Under the pieces are notes generated by a model. It made no database searches, was not told the DNA's origin, and was given only the letters and a program-made list of their open reading frames with translations. From sequence record NC_070987.1: a stretch of 64,000 bases of DNA, one strand, 5' to 3'. The DNA is from Escherichia phage MN05. The first letter of the stretch is position 1. Each line of letters opens with the position of its first letter. A program made the position numbers and the translations under genes. This document shows positions 51,181-53,290 of this stretch, in pieces.

Positions 51181-53211
51181 TTAACCTCTATTCAATGAAC
51201 ATTTAGGAGAATTACAATAAACTTGATTCATAGAACCAAGCGTACAACTTTCAGCATCGCGCCACGGAATCTGCTTAAAACACTCTGAGCAGTAGCCGAG
51301 GGTTGACCACATGGCTTTGGTGAAGTCAGTGCTTCGGTTTCCATCGAAGCTGACAACAGTTTTGCGGAGAGCTGTTCGTGATTCAGGAAACACACCTGCT
51401 TTCTCAGCAGGTTCCTCCTTTTTTGGCTTAGTTGAGATTGCAAAAACACTGTTGCTACGTTTCTCAACATAAGCATCAACAACATCCTCCAGAGTGATAC
51501 CTGTCTGTTTCGCTGAGGAAGGTAATACAGTCATACGACCGATCATATCTTCAGTTACACGTAAAGCAAATTCAGGACGACGGGCGTTTGTTGTATCCGT
51601 TGCTTTAATCCATACATAACCATCTTTGATCGTAGCATTAGATATTTTCTTCTTTACTTCTACAGCGCAGGCTTTACAGATATCTTCACCACGAAGACGG
51701 CTGAGTTCTTCATCAAACTCATTCTCTGTTTTAACTTCACCGCAGATTTCACAAACACCAATAGGAGTTTCCTCCTCTTCTTCCTCTTTAGGTTTAGTCA
51801 AACCTTCCAGACATTCAGAATGCCAATAGCACTGATATGCGAAGACTGCTTTAGGTGCATCCTTCCAATCAATGTGTTTGTCACAACCACCACAATCACC
51901 ATGAGAGTGTGCTTCCCAGAACTTACGAGTGATAGTAACGCCATTCTTGTTGACGAAACTATCATTCATATCAAAAGGGATATCATCATCAAAGTCAGCA
52001 GTAGTTGATTCAGGCTCCTTTTTCTCCAGAGATGGGTCAACAAAACGACCTGCTGTGATCACTAAACGGACCATAGCATTGACTTCGGAGATGCAGGATA
52101 CTGTCCCACGGTAAACAATTTTAGGGTCTTTCAGTGCGTCCTGATAAGCCTTAATGTCTACGTTATGAACATCACCTTCGATGTACTCTTGAGACTTCTC
52201 ATCGTAGATATAACCAATCATTTTACCACGAGAAGGAACAGCACCGGCGGTTGCATAAGGAACAAACTCATGCGGAGTGATTTCCACAGTCATATCGCGG
52301 CGAATATCAATGTTTCGATCGCTTGCGATTTTGTTTTGACTTACCACTGCGTTTCTTCGACGAACGTCTGCCGCTGTCACCCCCGGCTTCGTGTCGTAAG
52401 GATTGCTTGTACTGCTTTTTGAGGAACTTTGATAGCTGCTTTGGCTGTAGTTGTTCGAGTAGTAATTGCCCCAACGATTGATTACCGTAAAAACCGGAAG
52501 CTCGTGGGCGACCTCTTCAACTAGAGTCATGCTGTTGTTTGACATATCAAAGATATATTCTGTACCAACTTTACATTCAAAGTGCTCATCAATTCGGTTT
52601 TTGTGAGACTTAGAACGCTTCAGAATCCACATCAACATGTCTTCTTCAGAAGCACCAAACCAATCTCTGTTACAACGTGCGAGATGGAATGGACGCTCTT
52701 CATTACGGATGATATGAAGACGGTTGTCAGAAGCATCATGCCAGATTAAAGTGAAAGCACCATCCAGCTTTTGAATAGTCTCTGCTGCACCAATAGTGTT
52801 AATAGAGTGGCAGATATTCTCACTATCTACCTCGAAGTTTTTACTGTCAGGTAACAGATCTTGGTCCATCAAGGTTCCGTTATGAACCAGAGTGATGTTA
52901 CCATGTTGGAAAGGATGGGCGTTCTTGGCGTTAACTGCACCTTTCGTTGCATGACGGCTGTGACCAACAATCCATGAAGGCGCTACAGTGTAAGCTGTTT
53001 CACCAGTGGTGTGTTTCTTGTACTCATCTTGAAGGATGAATGCGAAAGAAGGAAGTGCTTCTTTATAAGTGAAGACCTCCTTAGTGCTCTTACGCTGACC
53101 AAAGATACCAGAGGAGTGTTGTCCTCGGAATACTCCAGCATAAAAGAGTTGGTTGAATACGTCTAAATCAGTGCTTGACAGATTACCGCCAGCTAATACG
53201 ATGCCACAAAT
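51181..53211 (-). CDS. class-II (Ntn) glutamine amidotransferase domain fused to Cys-rich C-terminal domain; probable ATT start
   Basis: hand translation upstream of the listed start gives (ATT)CGIVLAGG...VFRGQHSSGIF...GHSRHATKG...AHPF...LVHNGTL, parallel to PurF-type GATase motifs; in-frame TAG 2 codons upstream of Cys; AGGTGG about 8 nt upstream of ATT. Confidence 0.55.
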   Translation of the reverse strand: MCGIVLAGGNLSSTDLDVFNQLFYAGVFRGQHSSGIFGQRKSTKEVFTYKEALPSFAFILQDEYKKHTTGETAYTVAPSWIVGHSRHATKGAVNAKNAHPFQHGNITLVHNGTLMDQDLLPDSKNFEVDSENICHSINTIGAAETIQKLDGAFTLIWHDASDNRLHIIRNEERPFHLARCNRDWFGASEEDMLMWILKRSKSHKNRIDEHFECKVGTEYIFDMSNNSMTLVEEVAHELPVFTVINRWGNYYSNNYSQSSYQSSSKSSTSNPYDTKPGVTAADVRRRNAVVSQNKIASDRNIDIRRDMTVEITPHEFVPYATAGAVPSRGKMIGYIYDEKSQEYIEGDVHNVDIKAYQDALKDPKIVYRGTVSCISEVNAMVRLVITAGRFVDPSLEKKEPESTTADFDDDIPFDMNDSFVNKNGVTITRKFWEAHSHGDCGGCDKHIDWKDAPKAVFAYQCYWHSECLEGLTKPKEEEEEETPIGVCEICGEVKTENEFDEELSRLRGEDICKACAVEVKKKISNATIKDGYVWIKATDTTNARRPEFALRVTEDMIGRMTVLPSSAKQTGITLEDVVDAYVEKRSNSVFAISTKPKKEEPAEKAGVFPESRTALRKTVVSFDGNRSTDFTKAMWSTLGYCSECFKQIPWRDAESCTLGSMNQVYCNSPKCSLNRG

Positions 53212-53290
53212 TTTCTAATCCACCTGAAGGGTAAACCCTTTCATCTAATTAACCTTTAAATTGTGCCCCTTTATCAGAGGCACCCATTGA

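Follow-up and report, generated by a model that had tools for sequence, protein, structure and literature searches.

Class-II glutamine amidotransferases have cysteine as their mature N-terminal residue, and methionine aminopeptidase accepts cysteine as the second residue, as in GlmS, PurF and AsnB. Propeptides are also known in this enzyme family, in GltB and in Bacillus subtilis PurF, where the propeptide has 11 residues. AUU initiation of the type seen in E. coli infC and pcnB is likewise an already known kind of feature, although to our knowledge E. coli is credited with just two AUU-initiated genes. Stem-loops that lie next to the Shine-Dalgarno (SD) sequence or at the 5' end stabilise or insulate bacterial mRNAs, the ompA 5' stem-loop being an example. 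Here we describe an amidotransferase gene of Escherichia phage MN05 (NC_070987.1), which appears to start at an ATT codon directly before the codon for the catalytic cysteine and lies behind a leader of 56 nucleotides (nt) of unusual conservation. The window referred to below is the whole stretch of 64,000 nt that was analyzed.

The ATT codon and the amidotransferase reading frame

The window derives from a phiEco32-like podophage (Kuravirus, Gordonclarkvirinae) and shows 97.5% identity to NC_010324 across 3.5 kb. The gene is a homologue of phiEco32 gp83 ("glutamine amidotransferase") and its extent equals that of phi32_83 in NC_010324/EU330206. The full class-II glutamine amidotransferase coding sequence (CDS) occupies 51181..53211 on the minus strand, with 676 codons from ATT plus the stop, in a frame that is open from a TAG at 53217 to the stop at 51181.

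Read along the minus strand, the start region is CCTTC-AGGTGG-ATTAGAAA-ATT-TGT-GGC-ATC-GTA-TTA-GCT-GGC-GGT. The TGT codon (53206..53208, minus strand) would specify Cys1 of the mature enzyme, the catalytic N-terminal cysteine, and the CGIV motif that it opens agrees with homologues starting ATG-TGT. It is preceded by ATT (53209..53211, minus strand), AAA (53214-53212) and an in-frame TAG (53217-53215), as the earlier note on this DNA had read, and there is no ATG, GTG or TTG between the TAG and the Cys codon. This leaves ATT, which is conserved in relatives, as the sole plausible initiator in that interval. The SD-like AGGTGG (53225-53220) that had been placed about 8 nt upstream is separated from ATT by exactly 8 nt (ATTAGAAA). 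All that the earlier note read from the letters holds at the coordinates it gave. Taken as AGGTGGA (53219..53225, minus strand) it brings GGUGGA to within 7 nt of AUU, across an A-rich spacer, TTAGAAA (53212..53218, minus strand), which holds the in-frame TAG. The 18-mer GGATTAGAAAATTTGTGG is identical ahead of a distant homologue, L107.

Translation and identity of the N-terminus

A mechanical listing of open reading frames (ORFs) gives a 563-aa ORF from a TTG at 52870..52872 on the minus strand. As the earlier note pointed out, the same frame stays open upstream of 52872, back to the TAG, and encodes CGIVLAGGNLSS... The TTG is not the real start, as the upstream codons are under purifying selection. 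Between genera the 113 codons ahead of it show proportions of synonymous and non-synonymous differences (pS and pN) of 0.64-0.74 and 0.13-0.16, respectively, corresponding to a ratio of non-synonymous to synonymous substitution (dN/dS) of 0.05-0.10. Third codon positions are variable in 100 of the 113 codons and synonymous sites are saturated. A ratio this low at saturated synonymous sites means that codons 1-113 are translated in the ATT frame.

The claim that an N-terminal nucleophile (Ntn) amidotransferase N-terminus is encoded here was confirmed by a Pfam GATase_6 match (E=1e-14, 55 bits against a cutoff of 27), by the catalytic residues and by the selection just described. The PDB gave no match in a single-sequence search with the amidotransferase, and a profile was needed for alignment with GlmS. 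The profile of nine homologues aligned with E. coli GlmS (1xff) at E=1.5e-8, placing HxRxAT, HNG and DS(E) at the R73, N98-G99 and D123 region. The R, HNG and DS residues are invariant in homologue alignments A2 and A3. All homologues start Cys-Gly/Arg-Ile/Leu/Val, and in the phage gene TGT follows directly after ATT. The N-terminus of the amidotransferase is thus a real Ntn glutaminase domain, of class II as judged from its sequence, and covers approximately 249 aa (52462..53208, minus strand) according to the Pfam and profile alignments. The C-terminal two thirds of the protein (51181-52460, minus strand; residues ~250 to 676) have no Pfam match, and this part has several CxxC...CxxC clusters resembling zinc ribbons, e.g. 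CGGCDKH...CYWHSEC, CEICGEV...CKAC and CSECFKQ...CNSPKC.

Conservation of ATT and its leader

The ATT codon lies within a 56-nt leader, TTAAAGGTTAATTAGATGAAAGGGTTTACCCTTCAGGTGGATTAGAAAATTTGTGG (53204..53259, minus strand), which is invariant across Gordonclarkvirinae. Across the subfamily's 95 GenBank records its identity is at least 99%, and it is identical in each fetched locus that carries it (26 with full flanks, 17 distinct), metagenome contigs (7) and IMG/VR contigs (5) included. In a 12.3-kb three-genus alignment, in which 48% of the columns are invariant, the leader is the longest invariant run; it does not vary at any position, against 100 variable third positions in the 113 codons next to it. 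Because the leader is kept in the 95 GenBank records and in the metagenome and IMG/VR copies, the ATT is neither a product of chance nor the base-call error that the earlier note had wished to see excluded.

Alignment of homologues, which the earlier note had proposed as a check, shows ATT-Cys to be kept in the 95 genomes and also outside them. Aeromonas phage BUCT695 belongs to another family, and its protein is ~53% identical; its leader differs by two substitutions and retains ATT. L099, a short contig from a Herbiconiux assembly that probably represents phage contamination, carries a recognisably homologous leader, GAAAGGGATTTATCCCTTGGAGAGGATTAGTAA-ATT-TGC. Farther homologues, of 50-64% identity (GAP52, 7-11, CsaP_009, L034-L036 and others), read ATG-TGT in the corresponding place, behind a similar SD.

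No second copy of the leader was found within the window and none ahead of other genes; viral and metagenome pattern scans place it only upstream of the amidotransferase gene. An Rfam 15 covariance scan of the leader gave sub-threshold chance matches only (best 16.7 bits against a gathering score of 44) and no known riboswitch or frameshift element.

Recurrence of ATT starts among phage homologues

The obligatory Cys1 fixes the position of the true start, so that this family provides a natural ruler for start codons. Survey loci were taken from IMG/VR, GTDB genomes and GenBank phages, the Cys codon was located in each, and clustering at 95% identity gave 80 clusters. Cys is preceded by ATG in 63 of them (one being ATG-Cys-Cys), by ATT in 13, by GTG in three and by TTG in one, and ATA, ATC and CTG were not found at this position in any of the 80. 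With the exception of L137, each ATT case has an upstream in-frame stop and, from there to the ATT, no canonical start; L137 was dropped from the unambiguous set since it has an in-frame ATG seven codons upstream. The remaining cases form eight unambiguous lineage groups, i.e. the phiEco32 group (with BUCT695 and L099), L046, L047, L059, L073, L100, L102 and L107. In a neighbour-joining (NJ) tree the ATT cases are polyphyletic and scattered among ATG lineages. ATT is used in ~10-16% of the lineages of this family; that it exceeds GTG and TTG together, and is the sole AUN or near-cognate codon used, argues for selection of AUU over tolerated decay.

A close comparison is offered by L073 (ATT) and its close NJ sister L068 (ATG), whose N-terminal protein sequences are near-identical. 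In L073 (IMGVR_UViG_3300020576_000333, 1-400) an HNH homing-endonuclease-like ORF lies directly upstream and ends TAA-A-ATT. L068 has a different upstream gene, joined by a TAATG overlap, and the endonuclease insertion in L073 coincides with the change from ATG to ATT. A further observation concerns scaffolds of less than 1 kb in the actinobacterial draft assembly of Herbiconiux daphne CPCC 203386 (L096-L099 and L101), which carry different C3-podophage-type amidotransferases with TTG, GTG and ATT starts. These short scaffolds are most likely phage contamination of the assembly.

Structure of the leader

From 5' to 3' the region consists of a terminator-like hairpin, TTTAAAGGTTAAT, a small hairpin, the SD (A)GGTGGA, the spacer TTAGAAA, ATT and TGT. 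The small hairpin, the mini-ORF described below and the extreme conservation of the leader are absent from the earlier note.

The terminator-like hairpin, GTGCCTC-loop-GGGGCAC (53263..53283, minus strand), follows the stop of the amidoligase gene. Its stem covaries between genera (GGGTGCC/GGGCAC versus GGGCGC/GCGC), and MK373770 annotates a 'terminator' feature inside the matched 3.5-kb stretch. At the position of TTTAAAGGTTAAT relatives carry AAATGTAA, and AATGTA is found there in BUCT695, GAP52, L034, L036 and CsaP_009. AATGTA is the promoter hexamer of the phage sigma factor gp36 (PMC4281155), centred at -11.5 (PMC12276001). AAGGTT (53251..53256, minus strand), which shares this position, may be its degenerate counterpart, and if the -11.5 rule applies, the 5' base of the small hairpin would mark the start of the transcript. 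The leader matches the gp36 motif TAATGTATA at only 6 of 9 positions, so that promoter function in this subfamily is a guess. The motif TTTAAAKGTWAW occurs in the window at chance frequency only.

The small hairpin (53225..53243, minus strand; core AAGGG-TTTA-CCCTT at 53240-53227) is a predicted fold that ends directly at the SD. Equivalent hairpins with different stems are present in L099, L096, L107, L046, L047 and L059. In L099 the hairpin is retained and has gained an A-U pair, with a base on both arms, and in L096, which has a TTG start, a hairpin with a stem of unrelated sequence (GGGGC/GCCCC) lies equally far from the start. In a start-anchored alignment of five leaders the consensus hairpin shows double changes in 5 of 7 pairs.

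The hairpin overlaps an in-frame mini-ORF, ATG...TAG (53215..53244, minus strand; MKGFTLQVD*), which also runs across the SD and spacer, ends one codon before ATT and has its own AAGG 8 nt upstream (53256-53253). In L099 a CTG replaces the ATG of the mini-ORF, the reading frame is another, the peptide is not conserved and a tandem TAG-TAA directly precedes ATT. As the hairpin persists with double changes while the ATG of the mini-ORF is absent from L099, it is the hairpin and not the peptide that is the conserved feature.

Association of the hairpin with ATT

Hairpins were scored as abutting the SD when they had a stem of at least 5 bp and a 3' end 12-19 nt before the start, a criterion set after examples had been seen. 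On this basis a hairpin is present in 9 of 10 ATT clusters, 2 of 4 GTG/TTG clusters and 5 of 62 ATG clusters. With lineages collapsed the counts are 7/9 for ATT and 5/62 for ATG (Fisher p=2e-5). The minimum free energy of positions -48 to -11, which needs no such criterion, has medians of -6.1 kcal/mol for ATT and -2.9 kcal/mol for ATG (Mann-Whitney p=7e-4; p=0.006 lineage-collapsed). This association was unexpected. The spacer is also richer in A in ATT genes (0.59 versus 0.39). A stronger SD that would compensate for AUU was considered and rejected, the median duplex energies being -7.3 (ATT) versus -7.1 kcal/mol (p=0.42). Likewise discarded was a competing fold in which the SD of phiEco32 is sequestered, as this fold is broken in BUCT695 without compensation.

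Proposed mechanism of initiation

We consider it probable, with good confidence, that translation of the amidotransferase starts by SD-directed, infC-like initiation at the AUU of 53211-53209, with subsequent removal of formylmethionine (fMet) and with the hairpin as part of the device. The comparative evidence, including the conserved ATT and the purifying selection on the N-terminus, lends support to the earlier proposal of AUU as the initiator. The SD GGUGGA, 7 nt upstream, would position the 30S subunit across the A-rich spacer, and the near-cognate AUU would be read by initiator tRNA. Deformylase and methionine aminopeptidase would then strip fMet, leaving Cys as residue 1 and as the nucleophile of the Ntn glutaminase. 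Among start codons, sensitivity to initiation factor 3 (IF3) and to competition is highest for AUU (PMC5499595), and the outcome may be a reduced, IF3-sensitive translation of an early phage enzyme. That expression is low or regulated, as the earlier note suggested, can only be inferred. The hairpin may stack on or insulate the helix between SD and anti-SD, or form a protected 5' end of the transcript, in either case allowing use of a weak start codon. A part of the initiation may come from ribosomes that restart after the mini-ORF.

Several points weigh against this proposal. The SD:anti-SD duplex energy of the phage gene, -5.9 kcal/mol, is not stronger than the family median, and the SD is only of average strength. 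The leader fold has no thermodynamic significance (z-scores of -0.8 and 0), the hairpin alone being weak with a z-score of about 0, and the hairpin counts depend on the retrospective criterion given above. The literature search gave neither an N-terminal protein sequence nor ribosome profiling or reporter data for this gene, and proteomics of phage SU10 detected the protein, but against a truncated model. Finally, invariance over the full 56 nt exceeds the needs of an SD, a hairpin and a start codon, and something further constrains the leader. Overlapping signals (promoter, transcript 5' end, hairpin, SD and mini-ORF) may be sufficient to account for it, and a trans-acting partner may also play a part.

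A more far-reaching interpretation can be offered tentatively, with more doubt than belief. Here the hairpin, the 7-nt A-rich spacer and AUU would constitute a distinct and repeatedly evolved initiation module, in which the hairpin makes AUU usable or tunable, e.g. by way of coaxial stacking with the SD helix or of sensitivity to IF3. An additional factor acting in trans, either a phage protein or a metabolite, would gate amidotransferase synthesis and account for the invariance of the 56 nt. Phages would have many more AUU starts than their annotation shows, those described here being visible only through Cys1.

Alternative explanations

The alternative that survives best is termination and reinitiation, in which the mini-ORF (ATG 53244 to TAG 53215) is translated, the hairpin is melted and ribosomes restart at AUU as at the thrS-infC junction. 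At that junction reinitiation and de novo initiation are reported to have about equal shares (PMC3592434). The mini-ORF is in frame, is served by its own AAGG and is kept in the 95 genomes, with its stop 3 nt from AUU, so that UAG-AAA-AUU mirrors the UAA-GGU-AUU of infC; the TAA-A-ATT junction behind the HNH gene of L073 is of a similar kind. However, the homologous leader of L099 has CTG for ATG, another frame and tandem stops before ATT, there is no SD for the mini-ORF in BUCT695, and an equivalent mini-ORF is absent from most other ATT lineages. If the AATGTA promoter of the relatives is used, moreover, the transcript would start at or after the mini-ORF ATG. With no ATG in L099, reinitiation cannot be essential across the leader family, and we judge it unlikely to be the main route.

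The shared frame of ATG, TAG and Cys also allows for a start at ATG 53244 with readthrough of UAG, giving a 12-residue propeptide (MKGFTLQVD-X-KI) that would be removed autocatalytically as in B. subtilis PurF. A tRNA scan of the window found no suppressor tRNA, just tRNA-Arg(tct), and L099 has a tandem TAG-TAA and no ATG; readthrough is unlikely for these reasons. Both nucleotide differences in BUCT695 are non-synonymous, and the other unambiguous ATT lineages have no canonical start between ATT and the upstream stop, which lies 1-4, 8-10 or 17 codons away. We therefore regard a propeptide as highly improbable. Bypassing or frameshifting from the mini-ORF was considered separately and rejected, since the mini-ORF is already in frame and take-off and landing codons that match are lacking.

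Downstream starts, the choice of gene callers and of most submitters, would be correct if the real product began at a downstream canonical codon (e.g. TTG 52872 or ATG 52869) and the glutaminase N-terminus were a decaying remnant. Against this stand the dN/dS over the 113 upstream codons and the catalytic motifs, all of them intact, which together exclude a truncated product or a pseudogene; nor are the downstream starts chosen in the records conserved between genera. This explanation has hardly any probability left. There is a negligible chance that an ATG was turned into ATT by faulty sequencing or assembly. The rarity of ATT starts is the sole point in favor of such an error, which is already refuted by the 95 independently sequenced GenBank genomes and the 7 metagenome and 5 IMG/VR contigs that keep the leader.

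Annotation of the start in related phages

The ATT is already annotated as the CDS start in the GenBank and RefSeq records of phiEco32 and in BASEL phage Bas89, and since the phiEco32 reference record annotates it the start itself is not new. In other relatives the annotated starts are ATG +10 codons (EK010 and ECBP2), GTG +45 (KBNP1711), ATG +58 (EP335) and ATG +114 (Paul), and all four of these downstream positions delete the catalytic Cys from the deposited proteins. Gene callers that disallow ATT truncate the amidotransferase, and similar truncations are likely in other ATT lineages. The literature search, with the original phiEco32 paper lying outside it, found no discussion of the gp83 ATT start, and nothing relevant was found on an AUU start or on transcriptomics in phiEco32-like phages. 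The present analysis adds proof in quantitative terms of the translation of the N-terminus, together with the extreme degree to which the leader is conserved, the repeated appearance of ATT in separate phage lineages and its link with the hairpin, none of which we found in the literature searched. If SD-directed AUU initiation holds for this gene, it would provide a third natural AUU substrate in E. coli, an infC-like early gene of a coliphage that could be used to study IF3-dependent start discrimination during infection.

Other features of the window

The gp83 homologue is flanked by an Amidoligase_2 gene and an ATP-grasp gene. Antisense to its start lies a sigma-70-like sequence, TTGACA-16-TACGAT (53175-53202, plus strand), the only match of the sigma-70 promoter and terminator scan. 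It is probably fortuitous, because other genera do not conserve the codons in which its -35 element sits.

Three further regions, all on the minus strand, contain invariant blocks in the three-genus alignment. A gap of ~230 nt between ORFs (58537-58764) has blocks of 23 nt (58685-58663) and 35 nt (58630-58596) and two terminator-like hairpins followed by T runs; it gave no Rfam match and is a candidate for a conserved small RNA or regulatory region. The second-longest invariant run, of 53 nt (58987-59039), takes in the TAATG junction between a 77-aa ORF and the next ORF, together with the 3' end of the former. A 34-nt block, AGAGCATGTCAAAGATCATTTTGGGAGACACAGG, is found at 48172-48205.

Comparison with known systems

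As an Ntn glutaminase whose Cys1 must be exposed after translation, the phage enzyme resembles B. subtilis PurF, but its gene has no open propeptide, an in-frame TAG lying two codons before Cys. It also resembles GlmS, E. coli PurF and AsnB, in which the initiator is followed by Cys-Gly-Ile/Val and removal of Met exposes Cys1, an arrangement encoded as ATG-TGY in 63 of the 80 phage clusters. The difference is that those enzymes start at AUG and the phage gene at AUU.

With respect to its leader, the gene shares with ompA-type systems a short stem-loop just 5' of the ribosome-binding site, which, given use of the AATGTA-type promoter, would form the very start of the transcript. In those systems the stem-loop has no known link to a non-AUG start codon. 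E. coli pcnB, encoding poly(A) polymerase I, also combines AUU with a modest SD (GAGG, 6 nt), the presumed role being a low enzyme level. It differs in having neither an abutting hairpin nor a nearby in-frame stop, and it is a single bacterial gene, not recurrent across a gene family.

The arrangement of the site follows that of E. coli infC. Both genes have AUU with the SD 7 nt upstream (GGAGGA-AUAAGGU-AUU in infC, GGUGGA-UUAGAAA-AUU in the phage) and an in-frame stop exactly one codon upstream (thrS UAA GGU AUU, phage UAG AAA AUU), and in both the AUU is conserved across orthologues. In infC, however, the upstream ORF is a full gene, thrS, whereas that of the phage has at most 9 codons and is not conserved in L099. 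The AUU of infC serves autoregulation of IF3, while the phage product is unrelated to translation, and infC has no hairpin abutting the SD, whereas the phage leader has one.

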